From: Candidatus Levyibacteriota bacterium
Lineage (GTDB): Bacteria; Patescibacteriota; Microgenomatia; Levybacterales; UBA12049
Direction: 5' to 3'
DNA: 64,000 nt
NCBI GenBank assembly: GCA_043823085.1
Contig: JBDRBE010000004.1
Span: forward strand, 342,780 to 406,779
Position 1 is the first letter of the stretch; every line of letters starts with the position of its first letter. Below are positions 4,031 through 62,744 of the stretch, one piece after another. Both the position numbers and the translations under genes were made by a program. Under the pieces are notes generated by a model. That model saw nothing but the letters and a program-made list of their open reading frames with translations, was not told where the DNA came from and ran no database searches.

Positions 4031-4081
4031 ATATCTTCCTATTCTATCATCTTGCCCTCAAAAATCAAGGGATACTAAATT

Positions 4082-4110: not shown

Positions 4111-4179
4111 AAAATTTGAATAGTGCCATCGAAGCCAATTAAAGTTAAAGCTTGTTATGTTATAATTATTCCAGTCTTA

Positions 4180-5289: not shown

Positions 5290-5649
5290 TTAAATAATCT
5301 TTTTTCCTGTTTCCAAATCGACAACTTCACTAATTCCAACCAGTATTGCGGATTTTGGGAGAGGCGGGTTGCTTTTGGAAATCGCAAGATTTAAATATTT
5401 CCCCGATGAATAAACTGATGCTGTACCATCAATTCTGAAATAATGCTTGTCCTCATTTGCTACTATTGAAACTTTGTTGTTCTCTTTAATATTTTCCAGG
5501 GTTTTCTTCATCAAACACGCCCCAATTAATATTTTATTATCAATAATGCCAAGGGAAAGTACAGCGATAGCTCGTGACCTTCCGTCTTTTGAACTGGTTG
5601 CCAGAACAATCGCCTGTCTTTCTTTTAGCGCCTTTTTCCAAAAATCCAT
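5290..5649 (-). CDS. pyridoxamine 5'-phosphate oxidase-like (FMN-binding split barrel) protein, putative
   Basis: 119-aa protein with a PNPOx-like N-terminal pattern (LATSSKDGRSRAIAV). Weak assignment. Confidence 0.35.
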   Translation of the reverse strand: MDFWKKALKERQAIVLATSSKDGRSRAIAVLSLGIIDNKILIGACLMKKTLENIKENNKVSIVANEDKHYFRIDGTASVYSSGKYLNLAISKSNPPLPKSAILVGISEVVDLETGKKII

Positions 5650-5653
5650 AAAT

Positions 5654-5872
5654 TTACACTCCTACTTTGGCAGAAATAGCAGCTAGTTTTTCTTCTATTC
5701 TTGCAAGCGACGCCAAGATCTTTTCATGCGGGTCCCCTCCTGGAACCGGCCCTCCCATTGGAGGCGGTGGCGGTGGAGGCGGCCCGCCTAGTCCTGGCGA
5801 GACTGGCATCCCTCCCGGTGGAGGCGGAACAAGTCCCGGTCCTCCTAGTCCTTGATTTATTTGATCATCCAT
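5654..5872 (-). CDS. small Pro/Gly-rich protein (PPPPPPPP tract) with a C-terminal helical tail
   Basis: 72 aa. GGGGGTG RBS 7 nt upstream of the ATG. GC-rich low-complexity coding in an AT-rich genome. The start of the next gene follows 5 bp downstream, so an operon is likely. Confidence 0.5.
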   Translation of the reverse strand: MDDQINQGLGGPGLVPPPPGGMPVSPGLGGPPPPPPPPMGGPVPGGDPHEKILASLARIEEKLAAISAKVGV

Positions 5873-5880
5873 TATTTATC

Positions 5881-6003
5881 ACCCCCTAACCATTTAGAAT
5901 TTTTGAAGTTGGATATCTTTGACATATTTGATCTTGAATATTTGAATAATTGACATCTTTATATCTAGAATTCAAGAAAATCACACTTCTAATCTCAAGA
6001 ATT
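5881..6003. repeat. partial copy of the palindromic intergenic element family (TCAAGA/GATATC/TCTAGA words, ..AATCACACTTCTAATCTCAAGAATTCTAAT terminus)
   Basis: Shares terminus and word composition with the elements at 42151, 43544, 48677 and 62074. Lacks the CAGCTG core. Confidence 0.45.
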
Positions 6004-7323
6004 CTAATCACTCTCTCTCTTTTTTTCGACACTATAAAATCTTATTCTATCTCCCCTAAAAAGTAAATCGATTTCGCCTGTTGGTCCGTTTCGATGCTTG
6101 GCAATTAAAAGTTTCATCGGCATTGTTTTTCCGTATTCTTCTTCGGTTCTATACAAAAACATCACCACGTCCGCGTCTTGTTCAATAGCTCCACTTTCCC
6201 GAAGATCCGCAAGCTGCGGTTTCCTCTCTCCCCTGTGCTCAACAGCACGCGAAAGTTGGGAAACTGCCAGAACCGGAACTTTAAGTTCTCTTGCCAAATT
6301 TTTTAAAGATTGGGAAACAATTGAAACTTCCTGAACCCGGTTGTCATAACGTCTCCCCGGATCTGCCAACTGTAAATAGTCAACGATAATCAATTTTATT
6401 TTATGCTCTAGCTGAAGTCTTCTTGCTTTAGAACGCATATCCGAAACAGAAAGTCCCGGCGTATCGTCAATAAAAATTGGCGCATCTGCAAGCTGTCCCA
6501 TGGCTTCTGACAAATTGCTAAAATCGCTTTCTGAAAGTTTTCCGGTTTTTAATCTCCAGGAATCAACATCTGCCTGATTAACCAAAAGTCTATCCACAAC
6601 TTCCTCCTTGCTCATTTCAAGGGAAAAAAATCCAACCGGAATTTTCTCATTAACGCCTATAAATTGTGCGATATTTACTGCCAGCGCTGTTTTTCCCTGT
6701 CCGGGACGAGCCGCCAAAATTATCAAATTTGACTCCTGAAGTCCGGAAAGCATATTATCTAAATCCATGAAACCTGTTTTTATACCGCGGAACCCCGCTC
6801 CCTTTTTATGCAGTTCATCAATTCTGTCAAAACTCTCGGCTAAAGCCTCACGAATTGGAATAAACCCTTTTGAAATTTGCCATTGAGAAAGAGAAAAAAT
6901 TGATGACTCGGCTTTATTGAGAATATCTTTTACTTCCTCTTCGCTGAAACCAAGTTCCGAAATTTCGTTGCCTGCCTTTATTAATGACCTTTTTAGAGAT
7001 GCTTCTTTTATAAGAAGAGCGTAGTGTTCAACATTTGCCGCGGTCGGAACTTTATTAATAAGATCGCTGATAAAAGACGCTTCGATTTTTTTGTCCATTT
7101 TTTCTTTTTTGAGTCTTGAGGTTAATGTAAGAATATCGATTGGTTTTTTATCTTCATATAAAGTTAGCATCACATTGTAAATAATGGCGTTTATGTCGTT
7201 ATAAAAATCTTTTGGAGAAATAATTTCGGAAACAATACTTATTGCATCTTTATCAATAAGAATTGCGCCCAAAACGCTTTCTTCTGCCTCGTCATTATGT
7301 GGAAGGATGCGTGAAACTACCAT
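6004..7323 (-). CDS. dnaB: replicative DNA helicase DnaB
   Basis: 439 aa. N-terminal DnaB domain (LPHNDEAEESVLGAIL). Walker A GARPGQGKT. RecA-like C-terminal domain. Confidence 0.9.
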   Translation of the reverse strand: MVVSRILPHNDEAEESVLGAILIDKDAISIVSEIISPKDFYNDINAIIYNVMLTLYEDKKPIDILTLTSRLKKEKMDKKIEASFISDLINKVPTAANVEHYALLIKEASLKRSLIKAGNEISELGFSEEEVKDILNKAESSIFSLSQWQISKGFIPIREALAESFDRIDELHKKGAGFRGIKTGFMDLDNMLSGLQESNLIILAARPGQGKTALAVNIAQFIGVNEKIPVGFFSLEMSKEEVVDRLLVNQADVDSWRLKTGKLSESDFSNLSEAMGQLADAPIFIDDTPGLSVSDMRSKARRLQLEHKIKLIIVDYLQLADPGRRYDNRVQEVSIVSQSLKNLARELKVPVLAVSQLSRAVEHRGERKPQLADLRESGAIEQDADVVMFLYRTEEEYGKTMPMKLLIAKHRNGPTGEIDLLFRGDRIRFYSVEKKRESD

Positions 7324-11148: not shown

Positions 11149-11177
11149 TTGACAAGGAAAGTTTCTGTGGTATAAAC
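11149..11177 (+). promoter_or_regulatory. promoter TTGACA-N16-TGgTATAAA upstream of the RAYT gene. A near-identical copy sits at 11904-11931.
   Basis: ttgacaaggaaagtttctgtggtataaa compared with ttgacaaggaaaacttttgtggtatgat. Confidence 0.45.
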
Positions 11178-11184
11178 AACTATC

Positions 11185-11203
11185 ACACCCCCGAGGTGTA
11201 ACA
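11185..11203. repeat. REP-like hairpin (ACACCCCCGAGGTGTAACA), upstream flank of the RAYT gene
   Basis: Inverted repeat stem with a CCCGAGG loop. Same family as 11881-11902 and 33841-33877. Confidence 0.55.
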
Positions 11204-11212: not shown

Positions 11213-11878
11213 ATGTGCTATTATTTAATTATGCCTTATCGAACAACTCCACTTGTTAATAACGGTCTTTATCATATATATAACCGTGGCGTGGAAAAAA
11301 GACAAATCTTTATGAAAGACCGAGATTATCAAAGATTTCTCCAAACTCTCTACTATTATCAGTTTAGCGGTCCTAAAGCTCGTTTTTCTACGCATAAGAA
11401 ATTCAAAAATAAAAATTTTGATAAAAATCCTAAAATCGTGGAAATTATCTGTTACTGTTTAATGCCAAACCATTTTCATTTATTACTGAAACAATTAAAG
11501 GATAATGGCATTCAGGAATTTTTGAGTAAAGTAGCAAATAGTTATGCAAAATATTTCAATACTAAGTACAAACGAGTTGGTCCACTTTTACAAGGTCAAT
11601 TCAAAGCGGTAACTGTAGAAACCGATGAACAATTAGTCCATTTATCAAGATACATACACCTAAATCCATTCACAGCTGAAATTACAAAAGATTGGGAGAA
11701 CTTTCCCTACTCTTCCATTCAAGAGTTTATTGAGGATACAACTTCCAAAATTTGCGCCATTGAACAAATTTTAAATTTATTTACAAATCAAGCAGGATAT
11801 AGATCGTTTATTTCCGATAACCAATCATACGCTTTGGAACTTAGTAAAATCCAACATCTTTTAATAGACGAAGAATAA
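11213..11878 (+). mobile_element. REP-associated tyrosine transposase (RAYT; IS200/IS605 TnpA-like Y1 HUH transposase)
   Basis: HUH motif in CYCLMPNHFHLLL. Conserved YHIYNRG, SYAKYFN, RVGPLLQGQFKA and the catalytic Tyr region RYIHLNP. Flanked on both sides by REP hairpins. Confidence 0.75.
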
Positions 11879-11880
11879 TT

Positions 11881-11902
11881 GTTACACTCCCGAGGTGTAA
11901 CA
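11881..11902. repeat. REP-like hairpin GTTACAC-TCCCGAG-GTGTAAC, downstream flank of the RAYT gene
   Basis: Perfect 7-bp stem. Followed by a duplicated TTGACA..TATGAT promoter. Confidence 0.6.
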
Positions 11903-21650: not shown

Positions 21651-21805
21651 GCGGGAAGGCACAAAATTTTCGCAGTTCGCATTTCGAGCTAACAACTTTT
21701 GATACGAATTTTTAAAACCCCCAGAGTATTATTTTGCTTTGAATTAAATCAAAACTGTTGCGAGCTGCGGAACAAGAAAACTTTTGTGCCGACCTCAGCG
21801 CGACA
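21651..21805. mobile_element. MITE-like element with terminal inverted repeats GGCACAAAATTTTCGCAGTTCGCA / TGCGAGCTGCGGAACAAGAAAACTTTTGTGCCGAC
   Basis: Terminal inverted repeats are reverse complements of each other. Full copies at 36031-36190 and 48401-48525. Solo arms at 2380-2412, 45935-45990 and 58291-58340. Confidence 0.6.
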
Positions 21806-23795: not shown

Positions 23796-23955
23796 ATCCT
23801 TTTGGATTTCTTGACGTTGGATATTCTTGATATTCTTGACCTTGACGTTTTTGACTTTTTGATATCTTGAAATCAAGAATTCAATTCTTCAATTCGTCAG
23901 CTGACGAATCAAGATCAAAAATATCGCACTTCCAACTTCTAGATATCTAATTTCA
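23796..23955. repeat. palindromic intergenic element (TTCGTCAGCTGACGAA core flanked by TTGAAGTCTTGATATCTTGA words)
   Basis: Family copy between rpsF and ssb. Confidence 0.6.
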
Positions 23956-24460: not shown

Positions 24461-25705
24461 ATGAGGCGTTTCTCAAGAGCTCAAATTTTAGCTATTATTA
24501 CCACCATTATCATTGTTGGAGCTATTCCTCTCACCGTCTTTCTCGCCCGCCAACAGCAGGAAATAAGACAAAGAGCCTCCGGAAGAGAAAATGCACACTG
24601 CAACACTGGTGATACTAATTTTCCAGGCGGATATGATTATGTTGCCGGCGGACTTGATACTTATGTCCTTGCTTCTAATGGCGCTTGCAACGAAACAGGC
24701 GCAATTCCAGGAGTCCTTGTGCATGCCGAAGCCCTTCATAATGGTCCATGCGATAGAAACAATGAAGCAAATGATTTTCCTGGTTGTACAACTAGAGAGT
24801 TCATTCCACGGACGGAAATTGATGGGGAAGGATGCGGAATGAGTGGGAATGGCAGAACTGATATACATGGAGAAACCTATCTTTTTCCTCTTAATTGCGG
24901 GCACAATAATTTTCGAATCTCCGTTATAATTTCCCCAGATTATAAATTTACAGGATGGAATATTAACGGCGGGACATGTAGCACCACTGAATTAAGTCAG
25001 GCAGAAATAGAAGTACTAAATGGCGGCGATAAAATTTTGAGAATTTTTTATCAGCCGCCGACTGCACCAACTCCAACTCCTCCAACAGCAACTGCCACCG
25101 TCACTCCTCCAACAGCAACTGCCACCCCAACAAAAACCCCTACTCCAACGCCGACTGGAGTCCTCCCAACAGCGACTCCAACGAAAACTCCTACTCCTCC
25201 AACAACTGCAACTGTGACGCCGCCGGTTTATCCAACTCCCGAACCTTTCTATGTCTCTTTCGTCTGTAACAATTGTCAAGCAGCCCAAGTTCCGACTGCA
25301 ACGCCAACGCCTACAATAGCTGTAACTTCGCCCTCTTACTATCCACCGCTACCTCCAGCTACAGCTTGGCCGAGTGCCACACGTGTTCCAACAGTAACTC
25401 GTACTCCAACGCCAACACCGACGCGCACGCCAACACCGACGCCAACTCGTGGTCCAACGCCAACACCGACGCGCACGCCAACACCCGGCCCGACCGGCAC
25501 GCCAAGGCCGTCTTACTTTGTTGTAATTACAACAAAACCAACAATAGTTATAACAAGTAAAGTTGGCGGCCCAACTCAAGCTGCTCAAGGAGGAAGTCCT
25601 GCGCCAACTCTGCCGCCGACAGGAAGCATTAGTACACCTGTTGCCATAGGAATTGGCGGAATTATCTCTGTTATAATAGGAAGTATTATTTTCTTATTGT
25701 TATAA
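24461..25705 (+). CDS. cell-surface protein with an LPXTG-type sorting signal (LPPTGS plus a hydrophobic tail), a Cys-rich domain and a long Thr/Pro linker
   Basis: N-terminal signal anchor. PTATPTPTPPTATATV repeats. C-terminus TLPPTGSISTPVAIGIGGIISVIIGSIIFLLL. Confidence 0.6.
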   Translation: MRRFSRAQILAIITTIIIVGAIPLTVFLARQQQEIRQRASGRENAHCNTGDTNFPGGYDYVAGGLDTYVLASNGACNETGAIPGVLVHAEALHNGPCDRNNEANDFPGCTTREFIPRTEIDGEGCGMSGNGRTDIHGETYLFPLNCGHNNFRISVIISPDYKFTGWNINGGTCSTTELSQAEIEVLNGGDKILRIFYQPPTAPTPTPPTATATVTPPTATATPTKTPTPTPTGVLPTATPTKTPTPPTTATVTPPVYPTPEPFYVSFVCNNCQAAQVPTATPTPTIAVTSPSYYPPLPPATAWPSATRVPTVTRTPTPTPTRTPTPTPTRGPTPTPTRTPTPGPTGTPRPSYFVVITTKPTIVITSKVGGPTQAAQGGSPAPTLPPTGSISTPVAIGIGGIISVIIGSIIFLLL

Positions 25706-33840: not shown

Positions 33841-33877
33841 TTGTTACACCTCTTGTTACACCTCGGGGGTGTAACAA
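33841..33877. repeat. REP-like hairpin TTGTTACACC-TCGGGGG-GTGTAACAA, with a partial extra half-copy
   Basis: Inverted orientation relative to the copies flanking the RAYT gene. Intergenic, between the fabZ-like gene and cysS. Confidence 0.6.
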
Positions 33878-36030: not shown

Positions 36031-36190
36031 TGCGAGGAGGCATAAAATTTTCGCCGTTCGCATTTTGAGCTTAACATAAAAAGAACCGATTGAAAAGAGA
36101 CCTAATGAACAAATTAAGTAATTTTTAAAGAATGACTGTTGCGAACTGCGGAACAAGAAAACTTTTGTGCCGACTTCAGCAAAAATCTAG
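36031..36190. mobile_element. MITE-like element, second full copy (GGCATAAAATTTTCGCCGTTCGCATT ... GCGAACTGCGGAACAAGAAAACTTTTGTGCCGAC)
   Basis: Same terminal inverted repeats as 21651-21805. Confidence 0.6.
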
Positions 36191-36530: not shown

Positions 36531-36558
36531 CACTTAAATGATATATATCATTTAAGTG
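36531..36558. promoter_or_regulatory. 28-bp perfect palindrome CACTTAAATGATATATATCATTTAAGTG immediately 3' of the TrpR-like gene
   Basis: Seen directly in the sequence. A sister palindrome is at 37006-37033. Confidence 0.5.
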
Positions 36559-36559
36559 G

Positions 36560-37003
36560 TCAGAAGGCTTTTCTGTTTTTCCATTTTCTTTCTTCATGCT
36601 TTCTTCGATAATACGACCATGTACTTCCTTTGGACGGAGGAATTTTTGCCAGCATGTCTTCCACCTTTTGCCAAAATTCGCTTATCTTTTCGTCACGAAG
36701 TATTTTTTCAACCGCCTTTTTATAGCCTTTACCTGAATATTTAAGACTAATGCTTACCGAGGCGATTGTTGGAGGAGTAACCCGCAAGATATTTCCTATT
36801 GAAGGATACCTATAACCCTTTTCCAGTAAAACAGCAATTGAGAGACGTTTTGCCAACATTATTTTCTCTACTGGTGAGAGAAATTCTTCTAGAAAATCGT
36901 CGATATCCTGCGAATCCTTAAGACTTGCTATTACACTTTTAAAAATCTCAAACATTCTCTTTTGGACATCTTTATGAATCGGATATTTTGAAACCTGCGC
37001 CAT
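36560..37003 (-). CDS. TrpR-like (YerC/YecD family) DNA-binding protein
   Basis: TrpR-fold HTH region LSPVEKIMLAKRLSIAVLLEKGYRYPSIGNILRVTPPTIASV. Confidence 0.65.
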   Translation of the reverse strand: MAQVSKYPIHKDVQKRMFEIFKSVIASLKDSQDIDDFLEEFLSPVEKIMLAKRLSIAVLLEKGYRYPSIGNILRVTPPTIASVSISLKYSGKGYKKAVEKILRDEKISEFWQKVEDMLAKIPPSKGSTWSYYRRKHEERKWKNRKAF

Positions 37004-37005
37004 AA

Positions 37006-37041
37006 CACTTTAATGATATATATCATTAAAGTGGTTGTCAA
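37006..37041 (-). promoter_or_regulatory. 28-bp perfect palindrome CACTTTAATGATATATATCATTAAAGTG overlapping the promoter TTGACA-N17-TATCAT-N9-ATG of the TrpR-like gene (putative operator)
   Basis: The palindrome spans the promoter spacer and -10 and ends 2 nt before the start codon. Confidence 0.5.
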
Positions 37042-37166
37042 GAATTATTTTTTGATTCAATAACTTCTACCCTACCCTTTTTACTAATCTCTTAATTACC
37101 ATTTGCTGATTACTTATTTACTGATTTTTATTGACAGCATATTGTGCTTGTGCTAATATCACCGAT

Positions 37167-42150: not shown

Positions 42151-42295
42151 ATTGGAATTCTTGAAGTCAGATTTCCTTGACGTTTTTGATCTTGATTCGT
42201 CAGCTGACGAATTGAAGTCTTGAAGTCTTGATATCTAGAAATCAAATTATCAAGAAATCAAGTTCAAGAAAATCCCACTTCTATCTTCAATGATT
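42151..42295. repeat. palindromic intergenic element (CAGCTG core, TCAAGAAAATCCCACTTCT terminus)
   Basis: Between recR and prs. Confidence 0.6.
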
Positions 42296-43255
42296 CTATT
42301 TTTTTATTTCTTCGGCGATAATATCAGCGACTGTTAGAATTTGCAGTTTGGGAAATCTTTTTTCTCTTGGACAATAAACCGTATCTGTCACAAAAAATTT
42401 CTTCACTGCCGATTTTTGCAAAATTTTTGGCGCACTCTTTGAAAATACTGAATGCGTCACAAAAACATAAACTTCCTTTATCCCCAATTTTCGGAGAAGT
42501 TTTGTCGCGGTAATTATTGTTCCTCCAGATGAAATCATATCATCAACAATAAACGCCCTTTTAATTTGCTTTAAACTGATATTTTCCAAACCCTCAATTT
42601 TATCTGCTGTCACTTGTCCGGTTTCCAAATTTCTGCTTTTGACAATCGCGCCAAAAAACATATCATTTAACATTTGCGAAAGCAATTTTATCCGTCTTAA
42701 TCCTCCCATATCCGGTGAAATCAAAAGGCTCTGCGAATTATTCCATTTATTTTTTTTAATTGTTTTGGCAAAAAGAGAAAGCGCAGAAAGATGAATAATC
42801 GGCATATGAAAAAGCTCGGGAATTTTAATAGAGTGGAGGTCAAAACAGATAAGTTTATCCATCCCCATCGCTTCTAAAGTTTTGATAATAACTTCCAAAG
42901 ACACCGCCTCGCCTGTTCTAAAAAGATGATCCTGCCTTTGATAACCAAGATACGGAATAACAGCGGTAATTGATTTTGCGCCGCTTCTTCTTAGAGCATC
43001 GACAATAAAAAAAAGCTCCATGTAATTTTGGTCAACAGGCGTACAGCAACTTTGCAAAACAACGCATTTTTGGTCTAAAACTTTGTCAATAATTCGAACG
43101 CGTTTTTCGCCGTCCGGGAAGATATATATTTCCAGAGGTGTTGGACTTGTGCTTAATTTACCTGCGAGTTTTTTTCCAAGTGTCTTACTGGAACTACCGC
43201 TTATAATCTTCACAACAGTTATTGTACTATGTGTCGAAAAAAAATCAATAAGCAA
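42296..43255 (-). CDS. prs: ribose-phosphate pyrophosphokinase
   Basis: PRPP synthetase motifs (DLHS, VDDMISSGGTI). Confidence 0.9.
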   Translation of the reverse strand: MLIDFFSTHSTITVVKIISGSSSKTLGKKLAGKLSTSPTPLEIYIFPDGEKRVRIIDKVLDQKCVVLQSCCTPVDQNYMELFFIVDALRRSGAKSITAVIPYLGYQRQDHLFRTGEAVSLEVIIKTLEAMGMDKLICFDLHSIKIPELFHMPIIHLSALSLFAKTIKKNKWNNSQSLLISPDMGGLRRIKLLSQMLNDMFFGAIVKSRNLETGQVTADKIEGLENISLKQIKRAFIVDDMISSGGTIITATKLLRKLGIKEVYVFVTHSVFSKSAPKILQKSAVKKFFVTDTVYCPREKRFPKLQILTVADIIAEEIKK

Positions 43256-43543: not shown

Positions 43544-43704
43544 CCCCTACTGTTTAGATTTCTTGACGTGAGATATTTTTGATATTCTTGATCTTGATTC
43601 GTCAGCTGACGAATTGAAGTCTTGAAATCTTGATATCTTGAGTTCAAGAAATCAAAAATTCAAGTTCAAGAAAATCCCACTTCTCACTTCAAAAATTCTA
43701 ATTA
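43544..43704. repeat. palindromic intergenic element, the fullest copy (TTGACGTGAGATA ... TTCGTCAGCTGACGAA ... GTTCAAGAAAATCCCACTTCTCACTTCAA)
   Basis: Between ybaB and dnaX. Confidence 0.6.
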
Positions 43705-47608: not shown

Positions 47609-48676
47609 TTATATTTTTTCTAAAACTTGAATAATCTGTTTTAAAGTTAATCTTGATGCTCTCATTTTTGGGTTTTTGGCACTGCCGTTTAGAAGCATTT
47701 TCTTTGATACGTGCAAAAACCACGATGCTTGCGGATCCATTTTTTTGAATTTTTCATAAACCAAAGTCAGATCTGCTCCTTTTTCTCCGCTGACACTGGG
47801 CCGCGCTTTTATCCTTACATATCCTTTTCTCGGATCGCGTCTTACAACTATTGCATACCCCATTTTTTGCGCCAATTTTATAACCGAGTCATTAACTGTC
47901 TCAACACCCAAACCTTTCCCCCATCTTGTCTTAAACTCAATTCCTTTCTCGGCGATTTCTTTTTCGGCCCAAACTCTGTTTTCAAAATCATGTAAAATTG
48001 CATCAAGGCACTGCGAAATAAAATCAACATAAAAATTATCATCATTTGGCTTTTCAAGTTTCAACCCGTCTAAAATTCCTAAAATTGCAAAATCATGATA
48101 AAAAGCCGTAGGATTTTCCCACAAAGCTTCTCTAAAATGATCAATATCTGTCACAACCTTTACAATTCTACCTATGGCTTCGCTCTTGTCTTTCATTCTC
48201 TCGCTCTCCGAACTTTGAACTTTGCCCTGAACTTGTCGGATGGATGAATTTTGAACTTTCTTGATGTAGTCCCAAACCAAACTGGATGCGCTGATGCTTT
48301 CATCGGAAGTTAAATGATGGTCCAAAGGTCCAAGTCCAGTATCAACATGAATCATTTCGTTGTCATCAATCTTCTCGATAGCATCTAAAGAAGAATTTTT
48401 GCCGCGGGGAGGCACAAAATTTTCGCTGTTCGCATCTTGTCGAGCGCCAATGCGTTGATGAACGCCTTGAGACTCATCGCGAGACAACTGCGGAACAAGA
48501 AAATTTTCGTGCCGACCTAAGCGGCTCAAACCCTCTTTTCCTCTCACTCGCAACCTTTCTCCCGATAAAACAAATCTCACTTCTGCATTTTCCCATCCTG
48601 CTAAAAATCTTTTTGTCAACCAAACCGAGCAAATCGCATCTAAATCAGGAGAAGTATGGGTAACAACAATTTTCAT
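47609..48676 (-). CDS. DHH family phosphoesterase (NrnA-like) carrying an in-frame MITE insertion
   Basis: DHH motif I HTSPDLDAICS and the DHH motif in VDTGLGPLDHH. A 125-nt MITE copy at 48401-48525 is translated between them. A GAACTTTG-repeat insert lies at about 48181-48260. Confidence 0.6.
   Translation of the reverse strand: MKIVVTHTSPDLDAICSVWLTKRFLAGWENAEVRFVLSGERLRVRGKEGLSRLGRHENFLVPQLSRDESQGVHQRIGARQDANSENFVPPRGKNSSLDAIEKIDDNEMIHVDTGLGPLDHHLTSDESISASSLVWDYIKKVQNSSIRQVQGKVQSSESERMKDKSEAIGRIVKVVTDIDHFREALWENPTAFYHDFAILGILDGLKLEKPNDDNFYVDFISQCLDAILHDFENRVWAEKEIAEKGIEFKTRWGKGLGVETVNDSVIKLAQKMGYAIVVRRDPRKGYVRIKARPSVSGEKGADLTLVYEKFKKMDPQASWFLHVSKKMLLNGSAKNPKMRASRLTLKQIIQVLEKI
48401..48525. 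mobile_element. MITE-like element copy inside the DHH phosphoesterase reading frame
   Basis: GGCACAAAATTTTCGCTGTTCGCAT ... CTGCGGAACAAGAAAATTTTCGTGCCGAC. 125 nt, which is about 42 codons with no stop. Confidence 0.6.
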
Positions 48677-48897
48677 ATACTGTAAGTATACAAAAAATTC
48701 AAACTCTTGACAAACTTTTAAAAATGTTACAATATATTATTATACCGAATTTTTGAGGTGGGAAGTGGGATTTTCTTGAACTTGATTTCTTGATAATTTG
48801 ATTTCTAGATATCAAGATTTCAAGACTTCAATTCGTCAGCTGACGAATCAAGATCGAAGACGTCAAGGATATCTAACTTCAAGAATTCCAAATAATT
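48677..48897. repeat. palindromic intergenic element plus overlapping divergent promoters
   Basis: GGTGGGAAGTGGGATTTTCTTGAACTTGA ... TTCGTCAGCTGACGAA. TTGACA on the plus strand at 48706. On the minus strand, TTGTCA-N17-TATACT-N6-ATG serves the DHH gene. Confidence 0.55.
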
Positions 48898-52604: not shown

Positions 52605-53606
52605 TTACTTCTTCTTCACCGGATGTCTTCCAAATTGCCAGCGCATGGCGGCAACCACTTTGTTACGAAATCCGTTTGGTGATATTTCTTTATCTTTATC
52701 TGAATTATCGCGAACGCAAACTGATGCGTTAAGGACTGGCGTCTCAACACCCATTTTCTTTGCCATTTCAACAGTCCAGTGCCCCTCCCCTTTTGTTTTT
52801 CCAGAACCTCCGCCTGAACCAATGACCGATGAAATATCCGAAAGGTTTTGGTCTTTTTTTAATTCATTTAAAGTCCAGCCAACTAAACGCGATTCTATTA
52901 TTGAACCGTTATTGTAAATTCGAAAGACTTCGCTAAGGTCATATTTAAACGGAGCATATTTTAAAATCGCCGCGCCTTCGCCAATTGCCTCCATCATGCC
53001 ATATTCAATTCCGTTGTGAATTGTCTTGGCAAAATGTCCAGCTCCAATTGGCCCCAAATGCGCGTAGCCGTCTTTTCTGGCAGCAGATTTTAGAATCGGC
53101 TCAATTCTTTTGAAGTCTTCTTTTTGCCCTCCGACCATAATACATGCGCCATTTCTTGCTCCTTCTATTCCTCCGCTTATTCCGCAGTCCATATAATGAA
53201 TTTGTTTTTTTGCTAAAGTTTTTGCACGCCGCAAAGTATGTGTGTAAAGCGAATTTCCTCCGTCAATTATCAAATCGCCAGAGGATAATTTATCCATCAA
53301 CTCGTTTAAAACCGCATCAACGGCCTCTCCAGCGCTAACCATCAGCCAGATTATTCGTGGGGTCTTTAAAGTTTTAACTAATTCTTCTAAGGTTTTTGTT
53401 GTTGTTAAATTCCCACCATTTGAATTATGAATTATGAATTTTGAATTATGAATTTTTTTATTTTTCCATAATTCCTGATTCCTAATTCTTAATTCTTCTA
53501 TCGATTCTTTTGATCGATTCCACGCCACAATTTCCATCCCCTCTTCCAAAAGATGCAAAACCATTGCCTTTCCCATTTTGCCCAAACCAATAAATCCAAT
53601 CTTCAT
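52605..53606 (-). CDS. gnd: 6-phosphogluconate dehydrogenase-like NAD(P)-binding protein (short form), carrying an in-frame repeat insertion
   Basis: N-terminus MKIGFIGLGKMGKAM is a Rossmann fold. C-terminal 6PGDH domain. AATTCATAATTCA-type repeats at 53421-53500 encode RIRNQELWKNKKIHNSKFIIHNSNGG. Confidence 0.65.
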   Translation of the reverse strand: MKIGFIGLGKMGKAMVLHLLEEGMEIVAWNRSKESIEELRIRNQELWKNKKIHNSKFIIHNSNGGNLTTTKTLEELVKTLKTPRIIWLMVSAGEAVDAVLNELMDKLSSGDLIIDGGNSLYTHTLRRAKTLAKKQIHYMDCGISGGIEGARNGACIMVGGQKEDFKRIEPILKSAARKDGYAHLGPIGAGHFAKTIHNGIEYGMMEAIGEGAAILKYAPFKYDLSEVFRIYNNGSIIESRLVGWTLNELKKDQNLSDISSVIGSGGGSGKTKGEGHWTVEMAKKMGVETPVLNASVCVRDNSDKDKEISPNGFRNKVVAAMRWQFGRHPVKKK

Positions 53607-53666
53607 AATAGAAATTCTTACATTTATAAATAAGAGAGTCAAGTCCTAAATTATTTAAACAAATAA

Positions 53667-53703
53667 ACAAAATACTACAGTGCTATGTAGTGCTAAAGTT
53701 TAG
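53667..53703. promoter_or_regulatory. 37-bp repeat ACAAAATACTACAGTGCTATGTAGTGCTAAAGTTTAG, 3' copy, overlapping the stop of the TrpR-like gene
   Basis: 34 of 37 identical to the copy at 54250-54286. Contains CTACA..TGTAG and TAGCGCTA-like dyads. Confidence 0.5.
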
Positions 53704-54238
53704 AACGCAAAAGTTTTTCAATACGCCTATGGAGCTCGTTTTTTTCGTCCAGCTTCTTTAACACATTGCTTATTTTGTCTTTCTGTTTTTGACTCGCACT
53801 TTCTATTACTTTTTCCAAAAGAAGCTCCGGCCAAAAATACAAAGCATGTCTTCTTTTAAATTTATCCCAATCTGAAATATCTGCCCAACTTTTTCCCTTC
53901 TCTATTTCTTGTTTAGGAAGTTTTTTTATTATATTCCTAAAACCATCTCCTCTTTCTGAAAGCCAAACAGCTATCTTCGCAATAGTGGCATAACTTACAT
54001 GCAATTGCCGATTCACTTTTTGATAAGTCAATCCTTTTATCAAAAGTTTTGCTATTCTTAATCTTTTAGATAAAATTTGAACTTCTTTCTTTGTCAATAA
54101 ATCTTGAAGAAATAAAGCAGCCTCGCCGATATTTCCTGTATAAACTAATGCATTAAGTAAATCAAAAAATAAGTCTCTCTGTTCATTTTTTGAAAGCTTT
54201 TCAATTCTTCTTGGTTTTTCAAAAAATGTTTTATTCAT
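53693..54238 (-). CDS. TrpR-like (YerC/YecD family) DNA-binding protein, second paralog
   Basis: HTH region TYQKVNRQLHVSYATIAKIAVWL. Family similarity to the 36560 protein. Confidence 0.6.
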   Translation of the reverse strand: MNKTFFEKPRRIEKLSKNEQRDLFFDLLNALVYTGNIGEAALFLQDLLTKKEVQILSKRLRIAKLLIKGLTYQKVNRQLHVSYATIAKIAVWLSERGDGFRNIIKKLPKQEIEKGKSWADISDWDKFKRRHALYFWPELLLEKVIESASQKQKDKISNVLKKLDEKNELHRRIEKLLRSKL

Positions 54239-54249
54239 AAAATGAACTA

Positions 54250-54286
54250 ACAAAATACTACAGTGCTATGTAGCGCTAAAGTATAG
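54250..54286. promoter_or_regulatory. 37-bp repeat, 5' copy, just upstream of the TrpR-like start (putative operator with a TATACT -10)
   Basis: In gene orientation, TATACT is followed directly by the TAGCGCTA palindrome and the CTACA-N6-TGTAG dyad. Confidence 0.5.
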
Positions 54287-54352
54287 ACGTAATTAGCCTA
54301 ACATATTAATTATGGAAGAATCAATAAGAAGAATTCGCAAGATAATTGGAGA

Positions 54353-54679
54353 TTATTTGATTACGCTTCCCTCCGGAACTTCTTTGTCGGGAGATAAAAG
54401 AACGCATTTACCATCAACATCAACTGCCATAAGCATCCCCTGACTTTCCAATCCTTTTATAACTTTTTGTTCCATATTCATAATAAAAGTAGATTCTTTT
54501 CCAATTAAAGTTTCAGGCTTATAAAACTCCGCAATGCCAGAAATTACTTGTCTTTTTTCAGCACCGAAGTCAACTTCAAGTTTTAATAATTTATCAGCAC
54601 CTGCTACCTTTTCCGCCGCCAAAACTTTCCCAATTCTTATTTCTAATTTCTCAAAATCTTTAAAACCTACTGTATCCAT
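54353..54679 (-). CDS. tRNA-binding domain protein (CsaA/Trbp111/EMAPII-like)
   Basis: MDTVGFKDFEKLEIRIGKV..KLEVDFG matches the tRNA-binding OB fold. Confidence 0.65.
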   Translation of the reverse strand: MDTVGFKDFEKLEIRIGKVLAAEKVAGADKLLKLEVDFGAEKRQVISGIAEFYKPETLIGKESTFIMNMEQKVIKGLESQGMLMAVDVDGKCVLLSPDKEVPEGSVIK

Positions 54680-56115
54680 TTTCTCCCATCCTTCTGGATT
54701 AATTCATTTGCCTCTTTTGGTCCCCACGTCCCTGATTCATAATTCATAATTCCTGATTCCCGTCTCTTCCATCCTTCCAGAATTTTAGTGATAAACTCCC
54801 ACGAACTGTCAAGCTCGTCAGAGCGGTTAAAAAGCATCTGGTCACCAACAAAAATGTCCAAAAGAACTTTTTCGTATGCATTTGTACCTTTTGTATGAAA
54901 TTCGTCTTCGTAATTAAAATTCATATTTACTGTTCCCAACGACACTTTTGAACCCGGCTTTTTTGCGATAACGCGAAGACTAATTCCTTCATTCGGTTGA
55001 ATTCTGATAGTCAAAACATTTCCGGTCTCTGGACAACCATATTCTTTAAATAAAACATGGCAAGTTTGAATAAAAACTATAGAAATTTCCACAGTGCTTT
55101 TTGGCATTTTCTTCCCTACTCTTGCATAAAACGGCACATTTTTAAATCTTTCCGAGTCAACATATAATTTCATTGCAACAAAGGTTTCGGTATTTGATTT
55201 CGGATCAACATCCTTTTCTTTTAGATAGCCTTCATATTGTCCTCTTGCCACAAACTTATCAACCTCATTAGATTCTATGGAGCGGATTGCTTTAATTGCA
55301 TTTGCCCTAACATCACGCATATCGTCTCTTGTAAAGCTTCTTGGCTGTTCCATGGCAACTGCCGCTACCATTTGCATAATGTGATTTTGACCCATGTCCC
55401 TTAACGTCCCAACTCCGTCAAAAAACTTTCCTCTTCTTTCTATTCCCTTTTCTTCTGCAAGTGTGATTTGCACATGATCAATAAAATTTTTGTTCCAGAC
55501 CGGTTCAAAAATTCCGTTGGCAAATCTAAAAGCAATCATGTTCTGCACCGTCTCTTTTCCTAAATAATGATCAACCCTAAAAATCTGTCTTTCTTCAAAG
55601 ATCTCCGAAAGCCTTTTATCAAGCGCTCTCGCAGTCTCTAGGTCTTTACCAAAGGGTTTTTCAATAATAATTTTTGTCCACTTATTGCTTCCCTGTCCGC
55701 ACCCTTCGGAAAGTTTTGAATGATTAAGATGCTCTAAAATTTCCGGATAATTGGCTGGCGGCGTTGCCAAATAAAAAAGGCGCGTAACACAAGCGCCAAT
55801 TTCTTTATCAAATCCTTCCAGTTTTTTAATTAATTCTTCGTAATCTTCCTTTTCCTCAAATTTTCCTTGTTGGTAAAAAATATTTTTTGAAAACGCGTCC
55901 CAATCACTCTGACGATATGTATTATTAGAGTGTAAAAATTCTTTTAGAAGACTATGAAACTCGCTGTTTGTGAACTCTCTTCTTGCAAAACCAATGAGAT
56001 AAAATTTTTCCGGTAATTTTTTTTCTTGAAAGAGTTTAAAAAGAGAAGGAAGAAGTTTAGTCCGCATCAAATCCCCTGTTGCCCCAAAAATAATCATTGC
56101 AAATGGAGAATTCAT
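54667..56115 (-). CDS. zwf: glucose-6-phosphate 1-dehydrogenase
   Basis: NADP-binding GATGDL. Active-site segment DHYLGKE. Motif EKPFG. Small in-frame insert IMNYES from AATTATGAATTATGAAT near the C-terminus. Confidence 0.85.
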   Translation of the reverse strand: MNSPFAMIIFGATGDLMRTKLLPSLFKLFQEKKLPEKFYLIGFARREFTNSEFHSLLKEFLHSNNTYRQSDWDAFSKNIFYQQGKFEEKEDYEELIKKLEGFDKEIGACVTRLFYLATPPANYPEILEHLNHSKLSEGCGQGSNKWTKIIIEKPFGKDLETARALDKRLSEIFEERQIFRVDHYLGKETVQNMIAFRFANGIFEPVWNKNFIDHVQITLAEEKGIERRGKFFDGVGTLRDMGQNHIMQMVAAVAMEQPRSFTRDDMRDVRANAIKAIRSIESNEVDKFVARGQYEGYLKEKDVDPKSNTETFVAMKLYVDSERFKNVPFYARVGKKMPKSTVEISIVFIQTCHVLFKEYGCPETGNVLTIRIQPNEGISLRVIAKKPGSKVSLGTVNMNFNYEDEFHTKGTNAYEKVLLDIFVGDQMLFNRSDELDSSWEFITKILEGWKRRESGIMNYESGTWGPKEANELIQKDGRKWIQ

Positions 56116-56125: not shown

Positions 56126-56860
56126 CTACACCTTTTGGTCGGTTATTAAAAGCGTTTTTTTGGAGATTTCGGGCTTCAAATAAAAACGGGATGGAATTTC
56201 TTCAAGAGAACCTTGTTTGAACATCAAGCTCAACGCATTTTTCTTTGAAGAACCAAATACAAAAATAATCAAAAAATCAAACATTTCCATTGCTTTAAAA
56301 GTTAAAGTAATCCTTTTTCCAAACCCGGTTTGGAAAGTATTTCCGTCATCAAAACATGAAACAAATAAATTTTCCTGATCTTTTCCAAAAAGAGGATTTA
56401 CGAAATTATCTTTGTTTGGCGCAATCCCCGCAGTGTGACCATCATTCCCCATTCCAAAAATCCCTACACTCTTTGGAAATTTGGAAAGCAGTAAGCGGAC
56501 AGTTTCGTCATAATCTTTGACAGTTTTTTCAAAATCTTTATTCTCTAAAATTGGATAAAACCTAACGTTTGAACTTTGGAGATAAGAAACAAAACCTGTT
56601 TCTCTAATCATTTTTTCATTGCTGTCGGGATGATTTATTTCTCCATAACGTTCATCAACCAAAGCAACTGCGCCTGGTTTTAAAATTTTTTCTCTTGCAA
56701 TTTCTTCGTATAAAGCTTTTGGGGTTGAACCGCCGGACAGAAAAAGAACAGTTTTTTTATCAATAACTCCATAAAGAATTTCTTTGGCAGATTGCAGTTC
56801 TTGTTGGATATTATCTGCGGTTAAAATAGAAACGCCTTCTTTTTTCGCAAATTCATCCAT
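56126..56860 (-). CDS. pgl: 6-phosphogluconolactonase
   Basis: GlcN6P deaminase/6PGL fold (LSGGSTP motif). Confidence 0.7.
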   Translation of the reverse strand: MDEFAKKEGVSILTADNIQQELQSAKEILYGVIDKKTVLFLSGGSTPKALYEEIAREKILKPGAVALVDERYGEINHPDSNEKMIRETGFVSYLQSSNVRFYPILENKDFEKTVKDYDETVRLLLSKFPKSVGIFGMGNDGHTAGIAPNKDNFVNPLFGKDQENLFVSCFDDGNTFQTGFGKRITLTFKAMEMFDFLIIFVFGSSKKNALSLMFKQGSLEEIPSRFYLKPEISKKTLLITDQKV

Positions 56861-56962: not shown

Positions 56963-58192
56963 TTATGGACCAAAAATATTTTTGCCGGAAATTAATCTGG
57001 TTAAATCATGAAAAGTTATTAAGGCAATTAAAGTCAAAAGTAATGCCATACCAATCGCGTGAGAGTAGCTTTCGAATTTGGCCGGAACTCTTCGCCGAGT
57101 TGCTACTTCTATCAGAATAAAAAACAATCTTCCACCGTCCAAAGCCGGAATTGGCAAGATATTAAAAAAAGCAAGCGAAATCGACAATATTCCGGCGAGA
57201 TTTAGAACCTGTAAAATTTTTTCTTTAAGATCGGGTATTTTAACAATATTTCCAACCAAAGAGTATATTCCTACCGGACCGGCAACGCTTTGGGAAATAG
57301 GCTCGGCGGTTTTTTCTTTTATCGAAATACCAATTAGCTGTCCCATGATGTTGAAATTGTAAGCCAGAAGATTTAATGGATGAGTAAATCCGGAAAATAT
57401 TTTTTGAGGAACAGTTTTATAATCTAAAACTACCATTGAAACCGGAAAAAAACTAATTCCGATTGCTCCCTCGTTTTTGGGAGGATTTATTCTTGGTGTA
57501 ATTTTTGCAAAATAATTTTTATTATTTTTTGCATCCTGCCATGCAACTGTAATTTCTTTTCCTTTATTTTTACTAATAATTTCGGCAAAATAATTCACAT
57601 CATTAACTTTTTGTCCATTTATAGAAAGAATCTTTGAAAAAGATTTAATTCCCGCAATTTCTGCCGGCGAGTTTTTGGCAACATCGGCAATAATTATATC
57701 CGAAGAGTTAGTTTGAGAAACGGCAAAAAATTTATGATCGCCCAAAAGCGGGAGCTGGGTTTTAAAATCGGAAATAAATAAAAATGCGTAGAAAATAACT
57801 GCGGCAAGAACTGTATTCATAAAAACGCCGGCCACTACAATCACCGCTCTTTGTCCGACCGGTCTTGCAAAAAACGCACGGTCTTTATTCTTAATTCTTA
57901 ATTCCTGATTTTTAATTCCCGGCCTGCCGCTACCGGCCTCATCCTCGCCATAAAGTTTTACAAATCCGCCAATCGGCAGCCAATTAATTGAATAAATAGT
58001 CTCGCCCTTTTTTATGCCAAACGCTCTTGGAGGAAGTCCAAACCCAAATTCTTCAACTTTTATCCCTAATTTTTTTGCTACAAAAAAATGCCCAAACTCG
58101 TGAATCAACACTAAAATCGAGAGAATAACCAAAAAAACAACGGCCGTAATTATCATAAATTTTGACTTATATATCGCGGGGAGCCTTTTCAT
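56963..58192 (-). CDS. rseP: RseP-type site-2 protease (M50) with a PDZ domain
   Basis: HEFGH zinc motif in TM1. PDZ domain. LDGG motif. In-frame insert IKNQELRIKNKD from the TAATTCTTAATTCCTGATT repeat at 57886-57921. Confidence 0.8.
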   Translation of the reverse strand: MKRLPAIYKSKFMIITAVVFLVILSILVLIHEFGHFFVAKKLGIKVEEFGFGLPPRAFGIKKGETIYSINWLPIGGFVKLYGEDEAGSGRPGIKNQELRIKNKDRAFFARPVGQRAVIVVAGVFMNTVLAAVIFYAFLFISDFKTQLPLLGDHKFFAVSQTNSSDIIIADVAKNSPAEIAGIKSFSKILSINGQKVNDVNYFAEIISKNKGKEITVAWQDAKNNKNYFAKITPRINPPKNEGAIGISFFPVSMVVLDYKTVPQKIFSGFTHPLNLLAYNFNIMGQLIGISIKEKTAEPISQSVAGPVGIYSLVGNIVKIPDLKEKILQVLNLAGILSISLAFFNILPIPALDGGRLFFILIEVATRRRVPAKFESYSHAIGMALLLTLIALITFHDLTRLISGKNIFGP

Positions 58193-58340
58193 GAGGTGAC
58201 GTCTTCACTAGAGTCGCCGAAGGCGACCGTATCCCGAGTCCCGCCGATGAGGCGGGACGGAGGGACGCTTGCGTTTGAAGACTCGCCGAACTGGAAAGGC
58301 GACCTAAGCGATATTCCCTGAACAAGAAAACTTTTATACC
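58193..58340 (-). promoter_or_regulatory. GC-rich structured 5' leader upstream of rseP, with promoter TGGTATAAAAG
   Basis: In gene orientation: GTCCCGCC-TCATC-GGCGGGAC (8-bp stem) and GTCGCC-TTCG-GCGAC (UUCG tetraloop). Preceded by a solo MITE arm and a TATAAA -10. Confidence 0.3.
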
Positions 58341-58350
58341 AAAGTAAAAA

Positions 58351-62073: not shown

Positions 62074-62213
62074 GGGCTAGTTTTTAGAATCTTTGATGTG
62101 AGAAGTGGGATTTTCTTGAACTTGACCGTTTTGATATCTAGATATCTAGAATTCAAGAAATCGAAGATTCAAGATCAAAAATGTCAAAAATATCTCACGT
62201 CAAAAATTCTAGT
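62074..62213. repeat. palindromic intergenic element, a copy lacking the CAGCTG core
   Basis: Termini TAGAATCTTTGATGTGAGAAGTGGGATTTTCTTGAACTTGA and ATATCTCACGTCAAAAATTCTAG. Aligns with the reverse complement of the 43544 copy. Confidence 0.55.
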
Positions 62214-62744
62214 TCATCTCTCCAATTCCAAAAACTTATATTTATGTCCTTCCCACTTTCCTTCTTTTTCAAAAACTATTTTTTTGAATATTGATTCGTA
62301 TTCCGGGAAAAAAGTGTCGGCGTCTTTAACAGCATCTACAATTGTTAAATATAATTTATCCGTTAAACCAATCGCCTGCTGATAAATCTGTCCCCCCCCG
62401 ATAATAAATATTTCTTTTTTATTGTCATGCCAAACTTGTTTCGGCATCTCACGAGATTCTGAAGCCATTTTCAACGCTTCATCCAAAGAACTCGTAATTT
62501 TTAGCTTCGCAAGGCGTCGCCTTGCGAAGCTAGAATCTCGCGAAATAACTATGTTCGTCCTATTGGGAAGAGGATGGCCAATCGACTCGAAGGTTTTTCG
62601 CCCCATTATAATAGTATGGCCACATGTTTTTTCGCGAAACCGCTTCATATCTTCGGGGATTTGCCACAACAATTTATTATCGTTCCCAATTCCTCTGTCT
62701 TTTGAAATCGCTACGATGATGCTGATTTTTGAATTATGAATCAT
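62214..62744 (-). CDS. folA: dihydrofolate reductase, carrying an in-frame palindrome insertion
   Basis: DHFR motifs (IVAISKDRGIG, LLW, MGRKTFESIG). The 29-bp palindrome at 62503-62531 encodes SSFARRRLAKLKI. Confidence 0.8.
   Translation of the reverse strand: MIHNSKISIIVAISKDRGIGNDNKLLWQIPEDMKRFREKTCGHTIIMGRKTFESIGHPLPNRTNIVISRDSSFARRRLAKLKITSSLDEALKMASESREMPKQVWHDNKKEIFIIGGGQIYQQAIGLTDKLYLTIVDAVKDADTFFPEYESIFKKIVFEKEGKWEGHKYKFLELER
62503..62531. repeat. 29-bp palindrome AGCTTCGCAAGGCGTCGCCTTGCGAAGCT inside folA. Sister copy at 4082-4110.
   Basis: Seen directly in the sequence. GC-rich in an AT-rich gene. Confidence 0.6.

Follow-up and report, generated by a model that had tools for sequence, protein, structure and literature searches.

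Why does a small regulator gene carry the same 37-bp sequence at both of its ends, once just upstream of its start codon and once at its stop codon? This question is raised by a locus on contig JBDRBE010000004.1 of a Candidatus Levyibacteriota bacterium, of which we analysed a stretch of 64,000 nucleotides (termed the window in the following). The gene, TrpR2, encodes a TrpR/YerC-family protein, and an initial annotation had regarded the two repeats as presumptive operator of this protein. We found that the repeats are palindromes that occur only at the two ends of the gene, that this layout is conserved in two paralogous families across Patescibacteria, that the palindromes co-vary with the recognition helix of the encoded protein, and that the upstream palindrome overlaps a canonical promoter in four cases. 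We propose that the repeats may be cognate operators of the TrpR/YerC protein encoded between them, with the upstream copy (U) serving autorepression and the downstream copy (D) being an auxiliary operator, and we would give this reading a probability of about one half. The gene and its two repeats are located as follows, with scores from a position weight matrix (PWM):

53693..54238, minus strand: TrpR2, TrpR/YerC-family regulator, 181 aa (PF01371, E 2.3e-15)
54250..54286, minus strand: U, upstream 37-bp copy; palindrome 54255-54284, core CTACATAG at 54266-54273; PWM 33.8 bits
53667..53703, minus strand: D, downstream 37-bp copy; palindrome 53672-53701, core CTACATAG at 53683-53690; PWM 34.3 bits

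Two palindromes at the ends of a TrpR-like gene

A degenerate pattern search for the 37-mer gave exactly two matches in the window, both on the plus strand (53667-53703 and 54250-54286), as compared with none in 100 shuffled windows and a chance expectation of 0, and the presence of the repeat at the stop codon and just 5' of the start of the TrpR-like gene is thus as it had been described and far from chance. There are two mismatches between the copies (T/C at position 25 and T/A at position 34), so that they are identical at 35 of 37 positions and not at 34, as had been counted before, and with weaker flanks the similarity spans 55 nt at 84% identity (53650-53704 versus 54233-54287). U ends 11 nt 5' of the TrpR2 ATG and has its centre at a distance of 31 nt, and the left arm of D forms the final three codons and the stop codon of TrpR2 (CGT TCT AAA CTT TAG, R S K L *). 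U had been read as a -10 element fused to two dyads, and the elements of that description, TATACT, TAGCGCTA and CTACA-N6-TGTAG, are indeed all present, but the comparison with orthologues shows one long palindrome with another axis: each site is a single imperfect palindrome of about 30 bp, ATACTTTAGCGCTA-CA-TAGCACTGTAGTAT, whose dyad axis is the CA of CTACATAG, and CTACA-N6-TGTAG is restricted to the lineage of the window. The consensus of the two sites is ATACTTTAG(C/T)(G/A)CTA-CA-TAGCACTGTAGTAT. The length of the conserved palindrome within U is 26-30 bp, and the arms are imperfect in the window, with 9-11 of 14 positions paired. When the PWM was built from other Levybacteria sites, it recovered only U and D in the 64 kb, followed by a next score of 7.0 bits, and the best score in shuffled sequence was 18.2 bits. 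The concern that the 37-mer might be a common dispersed repeat, which had been named as an argument that would overturn the operator idea, does not apply in the window, as there are only these two copies in 64 kb, and two flanking copies do not make a dispersed repeat such as the repetitive extragenic palindromes (REP) or bacterial interspersed mosaic elements. The 3-10-kb flanks of about 35 loci contain no extra operator copies either, save local duplicates in two of them (L005, L034).

TrpR2 belongs to the Trp_repressor family (PF01371, 56.9 bits, cut-off 27), in agreement with the original assignment of the gene at 53693-54238 as TrpR/YerC-like. With 44.1 bits, it is barely over the cut-off of the YerC/YecD model TIGR02531 (42.2 bits), whose 88 positions cover only the N-terminal half, and it fails TIGR01321, the equivalog model of the E. 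coli-type trp repressor (25 bits, cut-off 67.25). The alignment of orthologues favours the ATG at 54238 as start codon over an upstream TTG at 54253. An N-terminal TrpR-like helix-turn-helix (HTH) domain of about 105 aa is followed by a family-specific helical extension of about 75 aa, and the close relatives form a tight group of proteins with about 177-181 aa. In the orthologue alignment the extension is strongly conserved, with the motif SDWDxFKRRxxLYFWPELLLEE..., and it has no sequence match in Pfam or PDB, as the PDB relatives 3g1c and 3kor (HisR/YerC-type) cover the N-terminal part of TrpR2 only. Among 1.8 billion representative proteins there are 72 matches to the extension, nearly all of them at the C-terminus of proteins with 170-190 aa. 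When modelled alone, the C-terminal domain consists of a helix that is followed by a 31-residue helix with a predicted local distance difference test score (pLDDT) of about 94, the overall pLDDT being 76.6. A further homologue search with alignment returned the same close Levybacteria set and no added diversity.

The window contains a second gene of this kind, TrpR1, which has a bracket of its own:

36560..37003, minus strand: TrpR1, 147 aa (PF01371, E 1.6e-9, 38.1 bits, cut-off 27)
37006..37033, minus strand: upstream palindrome of TrpR1, CACTTTAATGATATATATCATTAAAGTG, interleaved with TTGACA-N17-TATCAT; -10 to ATG 9 nt
36531..36558, minus strand: downstream palindrome of TrpR1, CACTTAAATGATATATATCATTTAAGTG, beginning 2 nt 3' of the stop codon; no -35 at the right spacing

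TrpR1 and TrpR2 are 30% identical over 101 aa (BLASTP, E 1e-12), and TrpR1 stays below the cut-off of TIGR02531 (27.9 versus 42.2 bits). Its 28-bp palindrome, CACTT(A/T)AATGATATATATCATT(T/A)AAGTG, is nearly perfect and differs from that of TrpR2. Since the bracket of the TrpR1 family is present in the window and in four orthologues (L042-L045), the statement that both TrpR-like genes of the window are flanked by their own palindromes can be extended to a layout that is conserved in about 32 loci of the one family and 5 loci of the other.

Conservation of the layout and co-variation with the recognition helix

For the TrpR2 family, we compared four loci on long contigs that encode proteins with 60-75% identity (L003, L005, L007, L010) and 30 further loci at 36-64% identity that came from a scan of 185,579 species genomes (L012-L041) and that belong to Levybacteria, Doudnabacteria, Wildermuthbacteria and other Patescibacteria. 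In the first four loci, palindromes with CTACATAG core are found at both ends of the gene, a short distance 5' of the ATG and at the stop codon, and the 8-mer CTACATAG is confined to these places in the respective sequences. Among about 32 complete and non-redundant loci, about 30 have a clear pair and 2 a weaker one (L033, L035), and when the upstream region is compared with the stop-codon region, the shared palindrome comes out as the best match in essentially all complete loci, with z-scores of up to 23 relative to shuffles. The pairs in L016, L021 and L026 were recognised on inspection, and the pair in L035 is inverted. The start codon follows the centre of U at a distance of about 15-50 nt, the centre of D is at -18 to +35 nt relative to the stop-codon end, and the two centres are 472-639 bp apart in 32 pairs, i.e. 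a second site at a distance is a regular part of the layout. Three classical YerC/HisR genes encoding proteins of about 100 aa (S. aureus, Listeria, gut Firmicute) have no such pair (z -0.2, 1.6 and 0.5), but at most one upstream HisR-type site, and their products have no C-terminal extension. We did not find the bracket architecture described in the searched literature, nor any paper that joins TrpR with Patescibacteria or the Candidate Phyla Radiation (CPR).

Two loci contain additional copies. In L005, a third, tandem operator copy (5635-5660) is located 51 nt past the stop-codon copy, and in L034 there is an exact second upstream copy with its TTGACA -35 (2549-2581). The latter belongs to an upstream region that is duplicated in tandem over 365 bp, and it was rejected as a separate target for this reason. 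Small open reading frames (ORFs) beside extra palindrome-like sites in L005, L041, L031 and L026 were also considered and are not TrpR-like.

The sequence of the palindrome differs between lineages. The Levybacteria consensus is AAAGTATAGTACTA-CA-TAGTACTATACTTT, Doudnabacteria have AATACTACCATGAT...ATCATGGTAGTATT, and two further versions are GTAAGTTCCAC...GTGGAACTTAC in L040 and AATTCTTCCACCAT...ATGGTGGAAGAATT in L041. These versions go along with the recognition helix of the encoded protein: the helix S-H-G-T-[IV]-A-K-I-A pairs with the CTACATAG core, the helix S-F-G-T-I-A-R-V-Q-T-W pairs with TACCAT..ATGGTA, and other helices pair with other palindromes. Paralogues in the same genome carry different palindromes (L031/L039, L033/L038). 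At 22 non-core positions, U and D are 75% identical within a genome and 55% between genomes, and none of 10,000 permutations reaches this. Such a co-variation would be the signature of a DNA site that is read by a co-evolving protein, and the product of the gene that the sites enclose is the obvious candidate for it. With this tracking of the helix and with the conserved layout, the original notion of a presumptive operator of the TrpR-like protein has gained support, and it is highly probable in our view that the repeats are cognate binding sites of the encoded protein.

The invariant part of the palindrome is the central 8 bp, which would form a hairpin loop if the sites functioned as RNA, and this conservation of the centre points to sequence-specific recognition by a protein. 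As RNA hairpins, the downstream palindrome could terminate transcription and the upstream one could be a terminator or a stabiliser, and a position just past the stop codon is typical of terminators. In some lineages the folds are stable indeed (L012, -21 kcal/mol, z -4.3; L031, -29 kcal/mol, z -7.9), but D of the window folds like shuffled sequences (-7.1 kcal/mol, z -0.07), the region 53450-54450 contains 0 terminator-like sites, and most copies lack the U-tract that would be expected to follow the G+C-rich hairpin of an intrinsic terminator. Hairpins would require neither a shared sequence of U and D nor a co-variation with the HTH, U lies within the promoter and is untranscribed where promoters are clear, and there is no Rfam family at the repeats, the sole match of the window at Rfam gathering score being a tRNA at 4181-4265. 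The would-be loop, CTACATAG, is what does not vary, and we regard a function as RNA hairpins as very improbable.

A direct repeat around a single gene is also reminiscent of mobile elements. In integrons, an attC site is found at the 3' end of each cassette gene, and Xer/pdif modules are organised by recombination sites as well. In analogy, the gene with one repeat could be a present or recent mobile cassette and the repeats its recombination sites, a possibility that the initial annotation had raised. There are direct repeats of about 30-55 bp around a single 0.55-kb gene, an imperfect palindrome directly 3' of the stop codon and a single gene between related sites, as in integron and pdif systems; the placement relative to the neighbouring gene csaA varies among Levybacteria, and the N-terminal HTH is weakly similar to the HTH domains of IS630 and HTH_23/38 transposases. 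In contrast to integron or pdif sites, the repeats are specific for each regulator lineage and paralogue and follow the HTH, and not a shared recombinase. No integrase or transposase adjoins the gene, there is no array or mobility signal, and the repeat is present in two copies only, without empty sites. Relatives are absent from viral contigs, and phage records give only N-terminal matches to short YerC-like proteins; these came from Listeria, Staphylococcus and gut records and were reused as the negative controls mentioned above. Moreover, across Levybacteria the gene is fixed within an rpsB-tsf-frr-rseP ... proS neighbourhood; zwf, regulator and gnd keep their order, and csaA is the gene that changes place. 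This conserved synteny argues against a mobile cassette, and of all explanations considered here we find this one the hardest to believe.

Possible roles of the two sites

E. coli trpR is negatively autoregulated, and self-control in the TrpR family is nothing new as such; what appears to be new is the putative auxiliary operator and a bracket that seems to be universal in a large Patescibacteria family. The HisR operator is a 20-bp palindrome with the in vitro validated consensus cacTTTA-N6-TAAAgtg, hisR is often autoregulated via one upstream site, and the half-site of TrpR is GNACT (PMC9413887). TrpR1 and TrpR2 share with HisR and TrpR the homologous DNA-binding domain (PF01371) and palindromic, lineage-specific operators, one of which is at the promoter of the regulator. 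The arms of the TrpR1 operator, CACTTTA..TAAAGTG, are the arms of the HisR consensus, with an N14 spacer in place of N6, and this operator may be read as two overlapping HisR-like sites that are offset by 8 bp. Likewise, the TrpR2 core GNRCT-N4-AGYNC seems to resemble the GNACT half-sites of TrpR at a shorter spacer. The long form departs from HisR and TrpR in three linked ways. First, its proteins have 147-181 aa and a conserved C-terminal extension, whereas the classical proteins have about 100 aa. Second, its operators are longer (28-36 bp versus 20 bp, with half-site spacers of N12-N14 versus N6-N8). Third, there is an obligatory second operator at the stop codon, which has no described counterpart in HisR/TrpR and is missing from the three HisR loci checked. 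Unlike HisR sites, which lie upstream of his or histidine-transport genes, these operators are placed on both sides of the regulator's own gene, and his or trp genes are absent from the surroundings.

With regard to a role of U in autorepression, we looked at its relation to the promoter. Two promoter-like sites near TrpR2 are of relevance here:

54280..54309, minus strand: promoter-like TTAATA-N18-TATACT (consensus only), the -10 being the outer left arm of U
53614..53642, minus strand: promoter-like site of the gnd-like gene, TTGACT-N17-AAGAAT with TG; -10 ends 7 nt before ATG 53606

An alternative -10 of TrpR2 is TAGTAT in the right arm of U (54255-54260), and the palindrome would overlap the core promoter either way. 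U is interleaved with perfect TTGACA-N17 promoters at TrpR1 of the window, in L034 (TATCAT), in L033 (TAGCAT) and in L035 (TAGTAT), and the matching D copies are without the -35. In these four cases, the predicted operator thus overlaps the predicted promoter of its own gene, and at TrpR2 of the window the same overlap is suggested by analogy and by the distance of 31 nt to the ATG. The right arm of U in Levybacteria usually is TATACT at 6-13 nt before the ATG, which fits very short leaders. All in all, U is probably an operator for autorepression.

It may be added that -10 hexamers are found 6-13 nt before the starts of the gnd-like gene (53606-53642), of TrpR1 (37003-37045) and of many TrpR2 orthologues, which suggests that leaderless or very-short-leader mRNAs are common in these genomes.

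How could the two sites work together? The palindrome would be made of short TAG/CTA-containing sub-sites, as in TrpR and HisR operators, and could have room for two tandem dimers. Protein bound to U, which overlaps the core promoter, would shut off its own transcription, i.e. exert negative autoregulation. D is located at the stop codon and is not a promoter, and it would serve as auxiliary operator: D-bound protein might cooperate with U-bound protein, most simply by looping of the ~0.57-kb gene via the C-terminal helical domain, and with such cooperation self-control would be tighter when protein copies are very few. Binding of the protein, repression upon binding and the cooperation of U and D are what we infer from sequence comparisons, and it is for D that we are most reserved, as a cooperating or looping auxiliary operator is a tentative assignment that we hold to be somewhat less probable than its opposite. 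Auxiliary operators and looping are known from lac (O1 with O2/O3), gal (OE/OI) and deo, and in lambda, CI occupies OL and OR, which lie to both sides of the cI immunity region. Looping repressors bridge their two sites as tetramers or higher oligomers. The sites described here resemble these systems in that there is a primary operator at the promoter and a distant second copy, and in that the lambda operators flank the repressor gene. They differ from lac, gal, deo and lambda in that a single second site is tied to the stop codon of a chromosomal gene of 0.5 kb throughout a superphylum, that no helical phasing is seen in the spacing of U and D, and that looping is a proposal here. With the layout being conserved in about 32 plus 5 loci and the operator tracking the recognition helix, the loop-forming autoregulation that had been suggested at the beginning is a live hypothesis.

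The same protein and the same sites could also be used in another way. In co-directional gene arrays, the protein could act as a roadblock or insulator against elongating RNA polymerase, blocking read-through into the regulator gene as well as transcription that would cross the boundary from the regulator or from a convergent promoter, and the unit would then serve as a transcriptional valve, controlled by a ligand, that lies between genes such as zwf and gnd or pgk and eno. This would agree with the position of D, which is always at the stop codon, the usual place of a terminator, whatever follows, and which is retained ahead of convergent genes. It would also agree with the gene order, as the downstream gene is co-directional in 33 of 35 loci and the upstream gene in 31 of 35, with short spacers, as the family is found inside housekeeping and central-carbon arrays (zwf/gnd, pgk/eno, SHMT/uppP), and as no intrinsic terminator-like site follows the window gene. 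A precedent for the halting of elongation at dispersed sites is given by the stoperators of Cluster A mycobacteriophages, which are asymmetric 13-bp sites that are bound by a monomer, occur about 20-30 times per genome and act in an orientation-dependent manner (PMC9283540). Like stoperators, which stop elongating polymerase, the sites lie in short intergenic spaces at gene ends, but there are two palindromic sites per gene, they are chromosomal, and the protein is of TrpR type; the palindromic nature of the sites is thus a difference that counts against the analogy. In addition, the gnd-like gene has its own promoter-like site downstream of D, and if U-bound protein already silences its own promoter, D would be redundant for that transcript. 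We consider a roadblock as rather unlikely, albeit as the most serious of the rival explanations. Looping and roadblock models are not mutually exclusive, and they are inseparable by sequence alone.

Several observations weigh against the proposed self-control by two operators. A looping mechanism does not demand a strict placement of D at the stop codon. The spacing of U and D shows no helical phasing (Rayleigh p 0.3-0.9), yet this is neutral at a loop length of about 570 bp. As to the domain that might mediate looping, its model has no fold match in the PDB (Foldseek, best E 8), and the full-length AlphaFold2 model of TrpR2, calculated as monomer, is poor (pLDDT 60) and gives no reliable picture of a pocket for an amino-acid co-repressor, as HisR and TrpR need it for binding (His or Trp). 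As to the promoter, the scan of the window is at chance level (4 sites versus 4.1 expected), and the promoter around U is non-canonical in Levybacteria. The similarity of U and D sometimes continues a few nt past the palindrome, and gene conversion may therefore add to their concerted evolution. The loci are phylogenetically related, so that there are fewer independent observations than loci, and a wider regulon may exist outside the scanned 64 kb and the 3-10-kb flanks.

If the only or main targets of a long-form TrpR-like protein are at the ends of its own gene, the unit could be a regulatory module in its own right, characteristic of Patescibacteria, that works as a ligand-controlled transcription valve or insulator between housekeeping neighbours, which is a speculative idea to which we give little weight. 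A valve of this type would open or close the flow between, for example, zwf and gnd or pgk and eno in co-directional, terminator-poor genomes, and a small genome would be divided up by several orthogonal copies that each use a palindrome of their own. The question of how minimal cells insulate or tighten autoregulatory circuits is of wider interest. Transcription control in CPR/Patescibacteria is almost unknown: genomes are tiny, regulators are few and there are almost no cultured members. The widespread and uncharacterised long-form TrpR/YerC family now has a precise predicted operator for every member examined, with a fixed two-site architecture of promoter and stop codon that is without counterpart in classical TrpR/HisR genes. 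Dozens of natural specificity variants, including orthogonal paralogues in one genome, constitute testable protein-DNA pairs.

Neighbouring genes and other repeats of the window

The genes around TrpR2 had been described as gnd-like, csaA-like, zwf and pgl, and the Pfam matches confirm this:

52605..53606, minus strand: gnd-like 6-phosphogluconate dehydrogenase, next downstream (PF03446, E 1.1e-44; PF00393, E 1.6e-18)
54353-54679, minus strand: csaA-like tRNA-binding protein (PF01588), without motif copy
54667-56115, minus strand: zwf (PF00479/PF02781), without motif copy
56126-56860, minus strand: pgl (PF01182), without motif copy

From this neighbourhood it had been concluded that the regulator may control the oxidative pentose-phosphate pathway. 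If so, D could be a promoter/operator of the next gene, by which the protein would co-regulate itself and gnd, and hence the pathway. D is located 81 nt upstream of the gnd ATG, the similarity of the repeats runs about 10 nt beyond the palindrome over a -10-like stretch (TAGTAT/TATTTT), and in L030 the polA ATG follows D at 15 nt, a placement that resembles the one of U relative to the regulator ATG. Moreover, zwf and/or gnd are found within 3 kb in most Levybacteria loci, and the regulator is mostly between zwf and gnd. With the PWM, no operator site is detected upstream of zwf or pgl or elsewhere in the 64 kb beyond U and D, and the promoter-like site of gnd is downstream of D and does not overlap with it, being located about 45 nt past the repeat centre. 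D also is without the -35 that is found at U. As a rule, D follows the stop codon of the regulator and not the next start: it is found at the stop codon with spacers to the next gene of 24 to 411 nt, including those of 270-411 nt in L003, L012 and L041, and it is retained in L019 and L023, in which the next gene, encoding a metallo-beta-lactamase-fold protein, is convergent. Since D is kept before convergent genes and long spacers, it belongs to the regulator gene and not to the next gene.

The neighbours themselves vary by lineage. Elsewhere, the bracketed gene is accompanied by rho, sigma-70, polA, cysS, enolase, uppP, SAICAR synthase and other genes, and the downstream genes are unrelated across lineages (gnd, csaA, rho, sigma-70, polA, cysS, enolase, uppP, PCMT, GT2, arginase, SAICAR synthase). 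The bracket is kept in Levybacteria relatives without these pentose-phosphate genes (L003, L007, L013, L018, L021), and there are none in the neighbourhood in more distant lineages. As the neighbours vary so widely, Levybacteria synteny is all that links the regulator to the pentose-phosphate pathway, and the attractive but unsupported annotation as pentose-phosphate regulator can be removed, although some metabolic link may still exist; an operator function of D for the next gene appears improbable. Neither a pentose-phosphate switch nor a mobile cassette fits the layout as well as self-control by two operators does.

One candidate for a pentose-phosphate link was an imperfect 28-nt palindrome of the TrpR1 type inside zwf (55905-55932, CACTCTGACGATATGTATTATTAGAGTG), which matches the window TrpR1 operator at 20 of 28 positions (8 mismatches) and, by eye, the type of L044 at 24 of 28 positions. 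According to a pattern search it is absent from the other loci, and as about one match is expected by our estimate and there is no conservation elsewhere, we treated it as a chance match and rejected it.

An AT-rich in-frame repeat is shared by two unrelated genes of this region, the gnd-like gene (53461-53494) and an rseP-like gene (57877-57910), and the encoded segments are similar (ELRIRNQELWKNKK for gnd-like, GIKNQELRIKNKD for RseP-like). The segment in the gnd-like protein lies in a stretch in which the NAD-binding domain exceeds the Pfam model by about 22 residues.

Several further repeats were noticed in the window. An IS200-like/Y1 transposase gene of the REP-associated tyrosine transposase (RAYT)-like kind, encoding 221 aa (11213-11878; PF01797, E 2.5e-7), is flanked by hairpin repeats (A/T)ACAC(C/T)CCCGAGGTGTAACA at 11175-11203 and 11874-11902, and a third, inverted-type copy is located at 33848-33876. 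A dispersed intergenic repeat of about 80-150 nt occurs at 5893-6012, 23801-23925, 42152-42301, 43554-43703, 48747-48892 and 62078-62211; its copies are found in both orientations, are up to 92% identical, contain TTGA(T/A)ATC / TTCAAGAA-like units and do not match any Rfam family at gathering score. A second dispersed repeat, GCGGGAAGGCACAAAATTTTCGC ... GAACAAGAAAACTTTTGTGCCGAC, is present at 21651-21799, 36032-36180 and 48404-48522, with a partial copy at 58320-58347, its copies being 71-89% identical, and one of them lies just 3' of the FeS-assembly gene that adjoins TrpR1. A G+C-rich palindrome of 37 nt, TAGCTTCGCAAGGCG(A/T)CGCCTTGCGAAGCTA, is found at 4081-4117, where it adjoins the tRNA gene at 4181-4265, and 58 kb apart at 62496-62532, and the two copies are 97% complementary. 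Finally, a tandem repeat with a period of 12 to 24 nt and AACACCGACGCGCACGCCAACACC-like units extends over 25111-25509 within an ORF of 414 aa (24461-25705) and is rich in Thr and Pro codons.

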